In this document: positions 14,264-57,932 of the stretch, piece by piece | Layout: every line of letters begins with the position of its first letter | Position numbering within the stretch: position 1 is the stretch's first letter | Sequence record: PQ850608.1 | DNA length: 64,000 nucleotides | Strand: one strand, 5' to 3' | From: Escherichia phage HermannAdler_Bas98 | Position numbers and translations under genes: made by a program | Notes under the pieces: model-generated | What the model was told of the DNA's origin: nothing | The model's database searches: none | Seen by the model: only the letters and a program-made list of their open reading frames with translations

Positions 14264-14731
14264 ATGATTAACGTTTCCGGTTTTGGCGCTTCGATTCGTT
14301 TGGTAGCATCAAACACTTTCCCTAATGGTGTGACCCTTTCTGATTTTGCAGATGATGCTGATCCGATTGACGCGCCGGACCTGCAAATCTCTGAGGCTGC
14401 AATGGGCCTTAACGGTGACTTAGTAGTGTGGAACCGTGCAAACCCGCTTGAAGTAGGTGTGAACATCATCCCTACTTCTGAAAGTGATGTCAACTTGGAC
14501 GTTCTTGCAGCCGCAAACCGCGTAGGCAAGCGCAAGAACTCCGCAAAAGACGTGATCACACTTGTGCTGACTTATCCTTCTGGAATGGTTATCACGCTAA
14601 ACAAAGGCACCTTGACAACTGGTTCAGTAATTCCTGGCATCCAGTCTCAAGGTCGTGTGAAAACACGTCAATATCGCTTCAAGTTTGAGAACGTAGTCAA
14701 AACTGGCGTGAGCAACCAAGAGATTTTATAA
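14264..14731 (+). CDS. Tail tube-like protein (paralog 1)
   Basis: 155 aa; N-terminus MINVSGFGASIRLVA...; clear paralog of 15682-16179; follows sheath-like gene. Confidence 0.55.
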   Translation: MINVSGFGASIRLVASNTFPNGVTLSDFADDADPIDAPDLQISEAAMGLNGDLVVWNRANPLEVGVNIIPTSESDVNLDVLAAANRVGKRKNSAKDVITLVLTYPSGMVITLNKGTLTTGSVIPGIQSQGRVKTRQYRFKFENVVKTGVSNQEIL

Positions 14732-15681: not shown

Positions 15682-16179
15682 ATGGTCAATATTAGTGGAT
15701 TTGGCACAAGCATTAGAATTGTCGCTCTTCAATCTTTTCCTGTTGGGCTGAATATCAGTTCTTTGTCTGATGACCAGGATTCGCTAATTATTGAGGAAGT
15801 TGAATCAGTAGGTTATCAACTTACTTACGACGGCGGCATTTGCATATACGACAAAGCCGCCGTCGTTCGCGTATCCATTGCGGTCATTCCAAACACTGAA
15901 GATGACATAAATCTTAAGCTTTTATTATCTGCCCGTAAAGGTGGATTCAAGTGGTTGCCAATTCAGGATGTGACATCGATGCTCATTACATATCCTGACG
16001 GTGGAAGGGTGGCATTCTCTAACGGAACGATAATCAGCGGTCCGCTTGGTGACTCCATAGAGCAATCAGGCCGTCGCAAGACAAACCGATACACATTTGT
16101 GTTTGCCAGCTACGGTGGCGCACAGAGCACGTCTCAAATTGCCAAGGGCGTGGTGCAAAGCATATTGGGGTCCATTTAA
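15682..16179 (+). CDS. Tail tube-like protein (paralog 2)
   Basis: 165 aa; N-terminus MVNISGFGTSIRIVA... and shared motifs (ITYPDG, RYTFVF vs ITLNKG, RQYRFKF) with 14264-14731. Confidence 0.55.
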   Translation: MVNISGFGTSIRIVALQSFPVGLNISSLSDDQDSLIIEEVESVGYQLTYDGGICIYDKAAVVRVSIAVIPNTEDDINLKLLLSARKGGFKWLPIQDVTSMLITYPDGGRVAFSNGTIISGPLGDSIEQSGRRKTNRYTFVFASYGGAQSTSQIAKGVVQSILGSI

Positions 16180-27880: not shown

Positions 27881-28525
27881 ATGATTAATGCAAACGTAAT
27901 ATCTAAAGGGACCGGATGCAGCATGGATGTTGCTGAAAAATGGGTCGACCCCTTCAAGCAGGCTTGTGAGCACTACGGAATCAAAAGCAAGAATGCCATC
28001 GCTGCGCTGCTTGCAAACGTAGGAGTGGAAACAGGCAGTCTGAAGACCTTTGTGGAAAACCTGAATTATTCCGCTCAAGGTCTTGCTAATACGTGGCCTA
28101 GCCGTTACAGCGCCAGCGGTCGTTTCGGTGGCGCACCAAACTCCTTGGCATTGTCGATTGCCCGTAAACCAATGGAAATCGCCAATAATACATATGCAAA
28201 CCGAATGGGAAATGGTTCGGTAGCATCTGGCGACGGTTGGAAGTACCGTGGCCGTGGTGCCATTCAGCTGACTGGAAAGGATAACTATGCAGAGTATTCA
28301 AAGCAATCAGGGTATGACGCATTGAATAACCCTGACATTTTGACTGAGCCGAAATACATTGCTGACAGCGCGGCATGGTTCTTCAAGAACAGCGGTTGCA
28401 TTCCACTTGCCGATGCGGGCGCATTTGATTCGACCGTGAAGCGGATTAACGGGGCCGCGCCAAATACGGCTAACCATGGGGATTTGCGACGGAAGCGTTA
28501 CAAGGAAGCACTAGCAGTTATGTAA
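27881..28525 (+). CDS. Endolysin, GH19 chitinase-like lysozyme
   Basis: Signature YRGRGAIQLTGKDNY typical of glycoside hydrolase family 19 muramidases; 214 aa. Confidence 0.8.
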   Translation: MINANVISKGTGCSMDVAEKWVDPFKQACEHYGIKSKNAIAALLANVGVETGSLKTFVENLNYSAQGLANTWPSRYSASGRFGGAPNSLALSIARKPMEIANNTYANRMGNGSVASGDGWKYRGRGAIQLTGKDNYAEYSKQSGYDALNNPDILTEPKYIADSAAWFFKNSGCIPLADAGAFDSTVKRINGAAPNTANHGDLRRKRYKEALAVM

Positions 28526-53792: not shown

Positions 53793-53828
53793 CAAAAAGG
53801 TGAGCTAAATGCTTGCCTTTTCTTTTAT
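53793..53828 (+). terminator. Rho-independent terminator (repeated module, copy 1)
   Basis: AAAGGTGAGCTAAATGCTTGCCTTTT hairpin (G-U wobble pairs) with U-run; 30-nt core identical to copy at 55332-55365. Confidence 0.6.
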
Positions 53829-53873
53829 CAATACTTATACTCTTTTCATCAAGACGAACAAGTGAGGTGAATT

Positions 53874-54191
53874 ATGATTTACTTAGGAATGGACGAAGAT
53901 GCGCACAAAGACCTTTCAAGGGTGCCAAACGTTAAGTTAGACACAGCCGTACACATCAAGCCTTGGCCAATCGTCCACCCAAACGTAGTTGTACCAGTCG
54001 CGCCTGGCACGCGTTACGTGGCCATTGATGACGACGGAGTCATTCACTGTTATTCGGAAAAACCAAAGTACATAGAGCAATATCACGGTTGGTTCTTGGA
54101 TGAGCGTGCAATGGCGCGTTACTGCGGCGAAGTCGGTCTGGAAGGCTGGGGATTCAAGGCTAGTGAATCGTGTGTCGAGGTGCAATTATGA
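53874..54191 (+). CDS. Hypothetical protein
   Basis: 105-aa ORF behind RBS GAGGTG. Confidence 0.45.
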   Translation: MIYLGMDEDAHKDLSRVPNVKLDTAVHIKPWPIVHPNVVVPVAPGTRYVAIDDDGVIHCYSEKPKYIEQYHGWFLDERAMARYCGEVGLEGWGFKASESCVEVQL

Positions 54192-54406
54192 ATGCCGCGC
54201 TGGGTAAGCTGTCTTTCAACAAGCGTAATGAGCTGAGAATGGTGTCGCGCTTTCAACAAACATATTCATCACTAATAAAGATTACAAATAAGGCCGACTC
54301 TCGTGTTTGCTCTAAAGAAGAATGGGAAGAATTGAACGAGCGTCGTAAACAATTACAACATGCCGCATTCAAGCTGCAGCAATATGCTATGGAGTATGCA
54401 AAATGA
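54188..54406 (+). CDS. Hypothetical small protein
   Basis: Start at Met7 of track ORF. Confidence 0.4.
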   Translation: MNAALGKLSFNKRNELRMVSRFQQTYSSLIKITNKADSRVCSKEEWEELNERRKQLQHAAFKLQQYAMEYAK

Positions 54407-54687
54407 AGATGCAAAGATGTCCCCATTGCTTGTCCACGATGCAGCTTACTGCTGAAGAATATTTACATCACGTTAACGTTTGTGAGGCTAATCCTGAAAA
54501 CTCGACGCGTTACTATTATCATTATCACGCAGAAGCGGAAGATGGATCAGGCGCAACAGGCATCGTCACCACTAAAGAAATGGTGATAACTAAAAAGGCA
54601 TATGAAAGCTTGCTGGAGACGATTAAAGAAGTTTCTGGCAAAGAAATCACCTGTATTAAATCTTTATCTTTCTTGCACGAGGTATAA
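54403..54687 (+). CDS. Small CxxC zinc-ribbon-like protein (paralog A)
   Basis: MKMQRCPHCLSTMQLTAEEYLHHVNVCEANPENS; paralogous N-terminus to the next gene. Confidence 0.45.
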   Translation: MKMQRCPHCLSTMQLTAEEYLHHVNVCEANPENSTRYYYHYHAEAEDGSGATGIVTTKEMVITKKAYESLLETIKEVSGKEITCIKSLSFLHEV

Positions 54688-54688
54688 A

Positions 54689-55072
54689 ATGAGAATGAAG
54701 CGTTGCCCTTACTGCCACGATGTGATGCATCTTCCACACGAAGAGTTTGTGCAGCACATGACTAACTGTGATAAGAATCCTAATAGCGAAAGCCAACTTG
54801 AAGAAAGAATGTTTCTTGTGTCATTCAAAGCTTCTGCTTATGAAGTGCAACGGGCTTACGGCGCACCAAGTACGATTTACTGTCCAACAACATTGAGAAG
54901 CGACATCGACTCAATTCAGCTTGCGGCCTGGATTAACGTTAAGGAAGGCATCACGCCGCACTTTATTGCGCGCATCCAATCTCAGATTCTACAAATGAAG
55001 CGCGAATACAACCGTGACATCACTGAAGTGAAGGTGCTGTCTATCACGCCGATGAATAAGGAGTTGCCGTGA
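54689..55072 (+). CDS. Small CxxC zinc-ribbon-like protein (paralog B)
   Basis: MRMKRCPYCHDVMHLPHEEFVQHMTNCDKNPNSES; start at Met30 of track ORF, 1 nt after upstream stop. Confidence 0.45.
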   Translation: MRMKRCPYCHDVMHLPHEEFVQHMTNCDKNPNSESQLEERMFLVSFKASAYEVQRAYGAPSTIYCPTTLRSDIDSIQLAAWINVKEGITPHFIARIQSQILQMKREYNRDITEVKVLSITPMNKELP

Positions 55073-55329
55073 ACAAGGGTCCGATGACTAAGTTAGCCGT
55101 TGCCGCGCGGAAGCTTCGACAAGCCGTTAATGGGTCGCGGCCCGTGGCGTTAACACTCGACGATGCAAAGGCACTGGTAGAGCTACTCGACGAGCACAAC
55201 CGACGCAAGAATCTGGAGAACACATTACGCTGGCGCGTTACTCCGAAAGGGCGGGAGAGCGAAAAGAAAGCTTACTTGCGGCGCAAACTAAGGTCGGTCG
55301 GCCTTCACGAAGAGGCGAAGAATATTTAA
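55069..55329 (+). CDS. Hypothetical small basic protein
   Basis: 86-aa ORF followed by terminator. Confidence 0.4.
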   Translation: MNKGPMTKLAVAARKLRQAVNGSRPVALTLDDAKALVELLDEHNRRKNLENTLRWRVTPKGRESEKKAYLRRKLRSVGLHEEAKNI

Positions 55330-55331
55330 TT

Positions 55332-55365
55332 CAAAAAGGTGAGCTAAATGCTTGCCTTTTTATTT
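55332..55365 (+). terminator. Rho-independent terminator (repeated module, copy 2)
   Basis: Same 30-nt hairpin core as 53793-53828, followed by TTTTTATTTGCCTG. Confidence 0.6.
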
Positions 55366-55401
55366 GCCTGTATTATACTTAGTTCATCAAGCAAAGGAGA
55401 A

Positions 55402-55710
55402 ATGATTATGAGTTACGACGAAAGGTTTGGCAGAAGCGGATTATTTCATGACGCTGTACACAAAGACAGCAAAGATGTTGTCTGCGCATTCAAGGTTGAT
55501 TCTTACGGTACGCTGAAACCATTTAAGGTCGGCGAAACATACAAGCTGTTTCACGGATGGTTGACGCGTCGCAACAACTTGCCTGACATGGAAGTCTGGT
55601 GGATAGAATACAAGGGTCAGGCTCATCGTTGCAAGGTTGTAGAGGTGCGCGGCGTGGAATACTATCAATCTGTTATCAGCGGCTTTGTTTTTAAAGAGGG
55701 TGAGCTATGA
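55402..55710 (+). CDS. Hypothetical protein
   Basis: Start behind RBS AAAGGAGA. Confidence 0.45.
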   Translation: MIMSYDERFGRSGLFHDAVHKDSKDVVCAFKVDSYGTLKPFKVGETYKLFHGWLTRRNNLPDMEVWWIEYKGQAHRCKVVEVRGVEYYQSVISGFVFKEGEL

Positions 55711-55892: not shown

Positions 55893-56125
55893 CATCCAAC
55901 CTTAAGGCCCGTTTATTATTCATCAAGCCGCATGTGCCGTATAAGATTAGTAAGCGCACCTGGCTTAACATTTACAACCGCAGCGGCGACCGTTGTTTGT
56001 ACAAGGCGAAGCGGCGCAAGAAGGTATATTTAAAGGCTGTGATGTCGCAGCCAGTCGATGCATTCATCGTCGGCGAAAATGAATTATCAATCGGCTATCA
56101 AATTGAACTCGGAGTAAAGAAATGA
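55889..56125 (+). CDS. Hypothetical small basic protein
   Basis: Start at Met6 of track ORF. Confidence 0.35.
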   Translation: MTSNLKARLLFIKPHVPYKISKRTWLNIYNRSGDRCLYKAKRRKKVYLKAVMSQPVDAFIVGENELSIGYQIELGVKK

Positions 56126-56625
56126 AAATCGAACAACTCGAAGCAGTATTGGAAATGGCTGTTAAAGCAGGCGCAATCAAAAGCTGGCATCGCGAGAAGT
56201 CGGATGACGCCGCGCACTTTTGTCGCAACTTCTATATCGTTGGCAACCTTAATGACCACTACACCATCGAGTGGTATACTAATATGATGACGCTTAAGTC
56301 GCGCACCATGGAGCTTTGGTGCAATGACATTTGCTTATCCAACACTCATCCATCCTACGACGTGGCATTGGCATTCTATTACGGAAGTCATCAACCAGTA
56401 GCCCACATTGGTGAGAAGCACGAACACCTGAAGGCGGGACCAGAAGATTCAATGGAAGGTTGGATTGAATGGTCTGGCGGCAAGAATCCGGTGCCTGGTA
56501 AAAAGGTCATGTTGATGTGGAGGAATGGCGCAAAGTCATCATACGCTTTCAATTCAAAAGGATACATATGGACTCACGACGGAAGCACCCATGACATCAT
56601 TGCTTATCGCGTCGTGGAGGAATAA
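56122..56625 (+). CDS. Hypothetical protein with conserved C-terminal W-GG-NPVPGK domain
   Basis: C-terminal about 55 aa (WIEWSGGKNPVPGKKV...IIAYRVVEE) shared with 57507-57932. Confidence 0.45.
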   Translation: MKIEQLEAVLEMAVKAGAIKSWHREKSDDAAHFCRNFYIVGNLNDHYTIEWYTNMMTLKSRTMELWCNDICLSNTHPSYDVALAFYYGSHQPVAHIGEKHEHLKAGPEDSMEGWIEWSGGKNPVPGKKVMLMWRNGAKSSYAFNSKGYIWTHDGSTHDIIAYRVVEE

Positions 56626-56966
56626 TGGAAGAGCAAGAAGGCCGTGAGCTAACGTTCGATGAACAGATGGCCGAACTTCAGCGCACATCGCCGCTGCGCG
56701 GTAAGGTTGTTGACATCGAGGCAAGCGAATCCAACCTCACCCAGTGGCGGCTCATGTGCACCAGCGCAGGCAAAGAGTTGTCAAGCTTCAAAGTCGGTCA
56801 GTCTTATTTGCTTTATGAGGCAAAAGGACTTATTATTGATGGAAGGCAAATCGTCTTCACTGTAGTCAGCGGAATGCGTTGGTTCGTGAAGCGTGATGTC
56901 GAGGGTCGTGACATGTTTGTCGCAGGCTTTCCAGAAACAAGATTCCAATTGGAGAAGGTTAAATGA
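56625..56966 (+). CDS. Hypothetical protein
   Basis: 113-aa ORF, ATG overlapping upstream stop. Confidence 0.45.
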   Translation: MEEQEGRELTFDEQMAELQRTSPLRGKVVDIEASESNLTQWRLMCTSAGKELSSFKVGQSYLLYEAKGLIIDGRQIVFTVVSGMRWFVKRDVEGRDMFVAGFPETRFQLEKVK

Positions 56967-57295
56967 AATTGAAATGGTATGTGGACCCTGAGCCGACAGG
57001 CTCATACAGGTCATTCCAACGTCGCGGCTGGCCGATTTGTTACAGCGGCAATCCCGATAAAGAAGACTGCGAGGTGCTTGCCGCGATAGTAAGTCTTAAT
57101 CATGACGGCTATGAAGGCCACTACGCGAGAGCAACCAACCTTCGTCTCAAGGTGCGCATCCATTTCAAGGTCGCAGGCGAGGACCGCACCGGACTCTCCA
57201 AGGAAGAGTTCAGCAGCATTGCCGAAGCAAAGGCATGGCTCAAGGCGTTCTACAAGAACAATCCTAAATTTTATCCAACTAAGGGTGCATTATGA
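56963..57295 (+). CDS. Hypothetical protein
   Basis: 110-aa ORF. Confidence 0.45.
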   Translation: MKLKWYVDPEPTGSYRSFQRRGWPICYSGNPDKEDCEVLAAIVSLNHDGYEGHYARATNLRLKVRIHFKVAGEDRTGLSKEEFSSIAEAKAWLKAFYKNNPKFYPTKGAL

Positions 57296-57510
57296 CCGAT
57301 AATCAATACGCAGTCGGGCAACGTGACATCGAGCAACTCGACGAGGGCGGCTATTATACGCGCCACATCTATGCCATGACTCATGAAGGACTTTACAGCA
57401 AGTCGGACATCGCCGCTGAACTGGCCCATCGTGACTTGCAAATTGACCTTCTCAAGATAGAAATTCAAAACTTACGCAACACCCTGTTAAACACCTGGAG
57501 CTTAAAATGA
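57292..57510 (+). CDS. Hypothetical small protein
   Basis: 72-aa ORF. Confidence 0.4.
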   Translation: MTDNQYAVGQRDIEQLDEGGYYTRHIYAMTHEGLYSKSDIAAELAHRDLQIDLLKIEIQNLRNTLLNTWSLK

Positions 57511-57932
57511 TACAGCGTTACGACCTGACATATGACGTGGCATCAGACGATTTCGCCGTCACTCCCGTTCCAGAAAGTCATGAAGGACGTTTTGTTGCAT
57601 ATGAGGACTATGAATCACTACTCAAGCTTAATGAGTCGCTAACAAAAGAGATTGAGCAATACCGCGAGCGCATCAAAGCCGCTGAAGATGTTATCAAGCT
57701 TTTTAGCGAGGCTGTTGAGAAATACAAGGAGCGCAACGTGCCGATTAAGGAGGAAGCGTGGACCGTGTGGTTTGGTGGCGTGAATCCGGTGCCTGGGAAG
57801 ATGGTTGAGTTTGAATTACTCAACGGTTATAAATCAAAAGGTGCTGTTCCTTCGGATAGTTTGACATGGGATAAAGTCACAAGCCCGACTGGTGCAAAGA
57901 TTGTTGCTTATCGGGTCGTTAAGGAGGGGTGA
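57507..57932 (+). CDS. Hypothetical protein with conserved C-terminal W-GG-NPVPGK domain
   Basis: C-terminal WTVWFGGVNPVPGKMV...IVAYRVVKEG paralogous to C-terminus of 56122-56625. Confidence 0.45.
   Translation: MIQRYDLTYDVASDDFAVTPVPESHEGRFVAYEDYESLLKLNESLTKEIEQYRERIKAAEDVIKLFSEAVEKYKERNVPIKEEAWTVWFGGVNPVPGKMVEFELLNGYKSKGAVPSDSLTWDKVTSPTGAKIVAYRVVKEG

Follow-up and report, generated by a model that had tools for sequence, protein, structure and literature searches.

Paralogous small proteins with a predicted C2HC zinc finger encoded by adjacent genes in Wifcevirus phages

Two adjacent genes of Escherichia phage HermannAdler_Bas98 (PQ850608.1), from this point on g1 and g2, encode small, cytoplasmic, two-domain proteins. 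They constitute a genus-restricted, uncharacterised family, in which a known finger fold is joined to a C-terminal domain without recognisable relative. The N-terminal part of each is predicted with good confidence to be a classical beta-beta-alpha C2HC zinc finger, and we tentatively prefer to see the pair as adaptors that bind protein.

Both genes lie in the window, by which we mean the whole 64,000-nucleotide stretch of DNA that was analysed. Across their full extent, positions 53800-55400 share 96.8% nucleotide identity with Escherichia phage vB_EcoM_WFC and 85-95% with further Wifcevirus members; by its sequence, the window is a Wifcevirus genome, that of a virulent E. coli myovirus. Members of this genus, which are candidate phages for the biocontrol of E. 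coli O157, are virulent myoviruses of E. coli and Shigella with genomes of 66-72 kb and terminal repeats of about 3.7 kb (PMC6563267). Extremely fast replication has been reported for them, as has resistance to nearly all tested defence systems, for which the protecting mechanism is not known (PMC11990801). Nearly all genes of their small-gene block are without annotation. The g1 and g2 genes are labelled 'hypothetical protein' in every annotated Wifcevirus record, and the Wifcevirus literature gives neither function nor expression data for them.

Reading frames of g1 and g2

The two genes are as follows.
54403..54687, plus strand: g1, predicted zinc-finger protein of 94 aa, pI 5.8, net charge -4
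54689..55072, plus strand: g2, predicted zinc-finger protein of 127 aa, pI 6.95, net charge 0

The start ATG of g1 overlaps the stop codon of the preceding gene (ATGA) and has GGAG upstream at 54391-54394, while g2 starts 1 nt past the g1 stop codon and has GAGG at 54679-54682. The two genes are thus adjacent and, to judge from this layout, translationally coupled. In a mechanical list of open reading frames, g2 is given an earlier start at 54602. The ATG at 54689 is the true one, because in phages that lack g1 the MRMKR of g2 begins in the ATGA where g1 here overlaps the preceding gene.

Paralogy of the two proteins

A preliminary description of this DNA had proposed that the two neighbouring genes are paralogs in which C-x2-C...H...C is conserved and the C-terminal parts diverge. 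Both N-termini that it quoted are found exactly where it had placed them, and each part of the proposal is borne out. BLASTP aligns g1 with g2 at 31% identity over 62 aa (E 9e-11). When only residues 1-36 are aligned, the score is 94, as compared with 22.6 +/- 4.8 for shuffled sequences, none of which (0/2000) reaches 94, and hhalign matches the N-terminal profiles of the two proteins with an E-value of 1e-10. The shared signature, C6-x2-C9-x13-H23-x3-C27-x2-NP, is contained in the first ~36 residues. In 17 g1 and g2 sequences the four ligands C6, C9, H23 and C27 are invariant, as are P7, L15 and P31; R5, M13, E18, E19 and N30 are nearly so, and F/Y20 is also common to g1 and g2. The pairwise alignment, a check that had been proposed at the outset, therefore reveals N-terminal similarity that is far above chance and extends beyond the metal ligands, since R5, M13, L15, E18, E19, F/Y20, N30 and P31 are common to both proteins. 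A six-frame scan of the 64-kb window for CxxC-x10-16-H-x3-4-[CH] finds the pattern in a real reading frame in g1 and g2 only. Paralogy of the N-terminal parts can, on these alignments, be taken as shown.

The C-terminal parts have indeed diverged. In this comparison, 303 of the 2000 shuffles match or exceed the observed score, which is therefore not significant, and hhalign returns a local E-value of 0.081. The last ~18 residues do align (IKEVSGKEITCIKSLSFL versus MKREYNRDITEVKVLSIT), and Foldseek pairs the g2 model with a BFVD model, that of a g1 ortholog (E 9.6e-3, probability 0.97). Paralogy over the full length is likely. For the C-terminal domains we claim only the same predicted topology, because sequence homology is not significant there. 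The finger-coding segments of the two genes are 54% identical in nucleotide sequence over the shared 108 nt, and the duplication must therefore be old.

Predicted structure and class of the finger

Each protein is predicted to begin with a beta-beta-alpha finger and to continue as a beta-beta-alpha-beta domain in its C-terminal part.
54403..54501, plus strand: predicted finger of g1, residues 1-33, with C6, C9, H23 and C27, then N30-P31 (AF2)
54511..54684, plus strand: predicted C-terminal beta-beta-alpha-beta domain of g1, residues 37-94
54689..54787, plus strand: predicted finger of g2, residues 1-33, with C6, C9, H23 and C27, then N30-P31 (AF2); dN/dS 0.075
54803..55051, plus strand: predicted C-terminal beta-beta-alpha-beta domain of g2, residues 39-121, with a long first hairpin

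In the AF2 model of g1 (mean pLDDT 85.1), strands at residues 3-5 and 12-14 are followed by a helix at 17-26, and the rest of the chain forms strands at 37-45 and 50-57, a helix at 64-78 and a strand at 82-93. The model of g2 (mean pLDDT 70.7) places strands at 4-5 and 12-13 and the first helix again at 17-26, followed by strands at 39-53 and 68-83, a helix at 90-107 and a strand at 110-121. The order strand-strand-helix-strand thus recurs in both C-terminal halves, with a first hairpin that is much longer in g2. Confidence is good for the fingers (pLDDT 85-90 in g1, 83-90 in g2) and moderate for the C-terminal domain of g2 (50-80). Structure prediction, likewise among the checks proposed beforehand, yields the same two-domain plan for g1 and g2, in two runs that are not independent, as each alignment held sequences of the other paralog.

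A zinc ribbon is built from two zinc knuckles, usually CxxC and CxxC, each at the turn of a beta-hairpin. The 'zinc-ribbon-like' label of the preliminary description does not fit g1 and g2, which have one CxxC only; their second ligand pair, H-x3-C, is on a predicted helix, and there is no second knuckle. In both models, the CxxC lies in the beta-hairpin and H23-x3-C27 at the C-terminal end of helix 17-26. We assign the predicted finger to the classical C2HC type rather than to the zinc ribbons because of this placement of the ligands. Classical fingers follow the ligand spacing C-x2-4-C-x12-H-x3-5-(H/C). All 17 sequences have C6-x2-C9-x13-H23-x3-C27, with a middle spacer one residue longer than the canonical one; the hairpin and helix of a classical finger are present in the AF2 models, and the core residues M13, L15 and F/Y20 are conserved.

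Search for relatives

Nothing in Pfam, PHROGs, NCBIfam or PADLOC matches g1 or g2 at threshold, and a fold search of the PDB returned no significant match to either. This holds for the curated finger family models of Pfam and NCBIfam as well, the best match of both fingers being DUF7501 (PF24333), which the g2 finger alone reaches with an E-value of 7e-4 and 20.2 bits, where the gathering threshold is 27. In the case of PADLOC, g1 has only a spurious match to LmuB (E 0.022, 11 bits) and g2 has none; no PHROG family rises above noise for either protein. When a finger-only profile was searched against PDB sequences, the tail of Crimean-Congo haemorrhagic fever virus (CCHFV) Gn (2l7x) came first with an E-value of 0.011 and GTSF1 (6x46) second with 0.022, both being fingers of the classical type and neither match significant. 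CCHC fingers of the UBZ4/NEMO type, which bind ubiquitin or a ubiquitin-like protein via a helix face, resemble g1 and g2 in ligand pattern. No UBZ or NEMO chain appears in the PDB sequence searches of the finger at E-values up to 10.

Searches of larger collections likewise lead back to the genus. A word-indexed search of 5.8 billion proteins with g2, g1 and the finger profile returned Wifcevirus orthologs only, and scans of IMG/VR, GTDB genomes and JGI metagenomes found Wifcevirus contigs only. An exhaustive HMMER profile search of 1.84 billion representatives gave four matches, of which only P0033 and P0034 fall beyond the g1 and g2 families. P0033 is a repeat protein and was rejected as a spurious match. 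P0034 is a marginal candidate for a relative outside Wifcevirus: a lysine-rich metagenomic protein of 161 aa (E 2e-4), it carries CPYC-x11-H-x3-C-x2-NP, including the EEF of CPYC..EEF..H...C..NP, and a similar following strand. It is encoded at 1288-1773 of L021, a 3-kb ENA metagenome scaffold, among small, unannotatable neighbours without a PHROG match. Neither gene has a copy in 5,426 complete E. coli genomes or in a plasmid collection, and we therefore consider g1 and g2 specific to virulent phages.

Distribution, indel and selection

The distribution of the two genes differs. All 28 Wifcevirus records of the phage collection have g2, which is thus a core gene of the genus; in the 5.8-billion-protein collection it is represented by 31 clusters (at least 73% identity), mostly from contigs of ~68 kb. 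By contrast, g1 is an accessory gene, found in about half of Wifcevirus genomes. It is full-length in 12 of the 28 records, it is present at nine of 19 distinct loci inspected, and a single cluster of nine sequences represents it in the same protein collection. Where present, g1 is always directly upstream of g2, and in phages without it, g2 begins at exactly the start position of g1. A junction alignment of 18 loci resolves this presence or absence into a clean 286-nt indel bounded by AAAATGA.
54400..54406, plus strand: AAAATGA direct repeat (7 nt), left copy, bounding the g1 indel
54686..54692, plus strand: AAAATGA direct repeat, right copy, 286 nt from the left copy

The g1 locus is mosaic, because neither the identity of g2 nor that of the flanks predicts whether g1 is present. 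For instance, Bas99 has a g2 that is 97.1% identical to that of the window, yet lacks g1, whereas FEC19 has a g2 of only 85.3% identity, yet carries g1. A recent deletion by recombination between the two finger-coding segments was considered and rejected: where a phage has only one of the genes, its finger is purely of the g2 type, and the position of the indel boundaries at start codons also speaks against such an event.

Pooled pairwise Nei-Gojobori estimates of dN/dS are 0.06 for g1 and 0.14 for g2. Both genes are functional and held by purifying selection, with no sign of ongoing diversification outside one loop. The preliminary description had called the paralogs 'diversified', which is right of the old split, as the 54% nucleotide identity attests, and does not apply to the present, given these dN/dS values. 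The exception is the tip of the long g2 hairpin.
54839..54898, plus strand: variable tip of the g2 hairpin, residues 51-70; dN/dS 0.41, as against ~0.1 elsewhere

This tip, with a pLDDT of ~51-53, is the sole relaxed segment of g2. Orthologs differ in it by indels of 3-6 aa, and its variants include AYGAPST, AYGASGAPSA and SYGERCDSGST. Apart from it, the conservation of g1 and g2 is not the pattern of an arms race. A third finger allele, CPYCLKTMQLSVESFMDHVASCDKSP, occurs in the g2 ortholog P0028 (L023 1501-1893, Logan contig ERR2001076_2568). It is intermediate between the fingers of g1 and g2, and the same phage also has g1.

The five-gene cassette and its neighbourhood

The third and fourth of five packed, translationally coupled and probably co-transcribed genes are g1 and g2; the successive junctions of this cassette are ATGA, ATGA, TAA-A-ATG and GTGA. 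A terminator hairpin stands on either side.
53795..53841, plus strand: upstream terminator hairpin AAAAGGTGAGCTAAATGCTTGCCTTTT, overlapping a promoter-like TTGCCT-N17-TATACT
53874..54191, plus strand: cassette gene 1, acidic, 105 aa, matching PHROG 1972 (E 1.6e-17), which has no assigned function
54188..54406, plus strand: cassette gene 2, 72 aa, pI 9.8, with a 4-nt overlap with both neighbours
55069..55329, plus strand: cassette gene 5, GC-rich, 86 aa, pI 10.8, whose GTG start overlaps the g2 stop (GTGA)
55334..55379, plus strand: downstream terminator hairpin, identical to AAAAGGTGAGCTAAATGCTTGCCTTTT, with a promoter-like TTGCCT-N16-TATACT

The 27-mer AAAAGGTGAGCTAAATGCTTGCCTTTT has exactly two copies in the window, where none is expected by chance. 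After each hairpin come a T-run and a promoter-like, sigma-70-like site that overlaps it, and the same hairpins are annotated as terminators in WFC. The cassette belongs to a long series of small genes, unannotated and all on one strand, that follows the gene of a primase-like P-loop ATPase. This block of small non-structural genes is placed downstream of the replication genes. The layout fits a non-structural and probably early or middle transcription unit, which the host RNA polymerase would read, and an 'early region' placement of g1 and g2, judged from gene order, is plausible.

Several other features of the region were observed. After each hairpin, the promoter-like site is accompanied by a shared TTCATCAAG, so that a terminator-promoter module of ~75 nt is repeated. 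The gene at 55069-55329 has a GC content of 55-57%, compared with ~40-45% nearby, and a very basic product; its place in the annotations of Bas99, Bas100, Bas101 and kaset is taken by an 81-aa gene without overlap. Another paralog pair, 56122-56625 and 57507-57932, is found in the same block; its C-terminal 58 residues are 46.6% identical (BLASTP E 2.4e-9), with the common motif W.GG.NPVPGK...AYRVV.E. Outside the small-gene block, the open reading frames 14264-14731 and 15682-16179, of ~155-165 aa, share 33% identity over 141 aa (E 1e-25) and are probably duplicated genes. The 72-aa product of 57292-57510 weakly resembles part of the 214-aa product of 27881-28525 (37.5% over 48 aa, E 1.9e-4). 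A supposed third paralog pair, 55408-55707 and 56625-56963, was discarded: BLASTP finds no alignment, and the 'FKVG.(T/S)Y.L' likeness is due to chance.

Possible functions

The reading that we would put forward, as a tentative preference, is that g1 and g2 are old tandem duplicates encoding zinc-stabilised adaptors whose partner is a protein of the host or of the phage. The zinc ion would serve only to stabilise the finger, and the finger helix together with the beta-sheet domain would form the binding surface for the partner. That partner, whether of host or phage, would more likely be a protein than DNA, because each protein has a single finger, because the pI is 5.8 for g1 and 6.95 for g2, and because of E18 and E19, which are conserved at helix positions that contact bases in DNA-binding fingers (standard C2H2 numbering). 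While the host is being taken over, the proteins would serve as small adaptors or inhibitors that work stoichiometrically, each paralog being directed at a partner of its own or at its own variant of a common partner. The resistance of Wifceviruses to nearly all tested defence systems has no known mechanism (PMC11990801), and genes for counter-defence or takeover, so far without assignment, should therefore exist somewhere in the genome. Against this reading, a housekeeping role in the phage would account for the strong purifying selection and for the core status of g2 no less well than a host-directed one.

The main rival, which we regard as rather doubtful, is that g1 and g2 are regulators that bind nucleic acid. 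The finger, perhaps paired through dimerisation of the beta-sheet domain, would recognise RNA or DNA of the phage or of the host and would govern the transcription or translation of phage genes or the stability of their RNA. That g2 behaves as a core gene would suit a regulator, and the closest PDB finger matches, CCHFV Gn and GTSF1, favour this alternative, as they are of the RNA-binding kind; these matches are, however, all below significance. Arguments against a regulator are the neutral to acidic character of the fingers and of the proteins as wholes, the presence of two conserved glutamates where the helix starts and is exposed, and the single finger of each protein.

A dedicated anti-defence role, which the preliminary description had raised alongside host interaction and in which each protein would inhibit a particular immune protein, with the accessory g1 widening the range, is a special case of the protein-binding model and appears unlikely. 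Besides the defence resistance of Wifceviruses, for which no mechanism is known (PMC11990801), the points in its favour are the accessory and mosaic presence of g1 among otherwise similar genomes, the relaxed, indel-bearing hairpin tip of g2, the existence of at least three finger alleles when that of P0028 is counted, and the absence of both genes from the E. coli genomes and plasmids searched. On the other hand, neither protein is similar to any PADLOC protein, no named protein is found among the BFVD structure matches, and selection is overall strongly purifying, with no sign of positive selection. The BASEL isolates Bas99-101, moreover, lack g1. These are the three that we examined for g1 among the four isolates of the resistance study, and they are resistant to all tested systems except EcoP1_I (PMC11990801). 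It follows that g1 is not needed for that resistance.

More specific still, and more speculative, is the idea that the genes represent a phage-specific family of modular host-protein inhibitors, built from a single CCHC finger and a new beta-beta-alpha-beta domain, in which g2 would disable a conserved host factor, and might in this way contribute to the unusually fast takeover reported for Wifceviruses, and the accessory g1 and the alternative fingers would turn one scaffold against defence proteins that differ between strains. We hold this to be improbable as a whole. If true, such an inhibitor scaffold would explain part of the fast takeover or of the defence resistance of Wifceviruses.

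The weakest proposal, that g1 is a mobile-element remnant or cargo and its finger the part with which a now degenerate homing endonuclease binds DNA, could appeal to the exact, gene-sized indel and to a non-significant match between the N-termini of g2 and of PHROG 15137 'endonuclease' (E 0.044), but is very improbable and close to refuted, given that g1 has no nuclease domain or motif, that its 58-aa C-terminal domain is too small and its predicted fold unlike HNH, GIY-YIG or LAGLIDADG, that a dN/dS of 0.06 over the whole length shows it not to be decaying, and that the indel boundaries are translational-coupling signals common to both paralogs, as with unequal recombination between tandem copies.

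The protein-binding adaptor thus remains our tentative choice. With a defined architecture, an exact pattern of core and accessory genes and known positions for the putative ligand residues, g1 and g2 are reasonable first targets for functional work. Beyond that value as targets, the finding is an ordinary one, a genus-restricted family of small, predicted zinc-finger proteins.

Comparison with known systems

The structures closest to the predicted finger of g1 and g2 are the dual CCHC fingers of the CCHFV Gn tail (2L7X). They share the C-x2-C...H-x3-C order of ligands and the combination of hairpin and helix, which in g1 and g2 is predicted, as well as a local resemblance, CPYC..L....HV..C, at the E-value of 0.011 given above. 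As compared with classical fingers such as those of CCHFV Gn, the Cys-His spacer is 13 residues instead of the canonical 12. Further differences from CCHFV Gn are that g1 and g2 have a single finger and not an array, that their surface is neutral to acidic and not basic, that an unrelated beta-beta-alpha-beta domain is joined to the finger, and that no Pfam finger model matches it at threshold. The CHHC fingers of the U11-48K/GTSF1 type (6X46) begin with 'CP[YF]', as do those of g1 and g2, and the GTSF1 ending 'H...C.KN.P' resembles H23-x3-C27-x-K-N-P of g2, with both GTSF1 fingers matched at an E-value of 0.022, although the second ligand of g1 and g2 is Cys and not His, and the match falls far short of significance. 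RNA binding is a property of the CCHFV Gn tail finger and of the GTSF1-type fingers, the latter being basic. DUF7501 can be aligned with the fingers of g1 and g2 over 24 residues only, and is itself a family without known function.

Among phage proteins, P2 Ogr and P4 Delta are zinc-finger transcription activators with four cysteines and a long spacer. Like g1 and g2, for which zinc binding is predicted, they are small zinc-binding proteins of enterobacterial phages; hmmscan gave no Pfam match of g1 or g2 to the Ogr/Delta family. We also count among the closest systems T7 Gp2 and p56 of phi29 and VMY22, small acidic phage inhibitors of RNA polymerase, whose beta' jaw Gp2 binds, and of uracil-DNA glycosylase, respectively. 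Small zinc-binding proteins without known function are common in the early or accessory regions of phage genomes.
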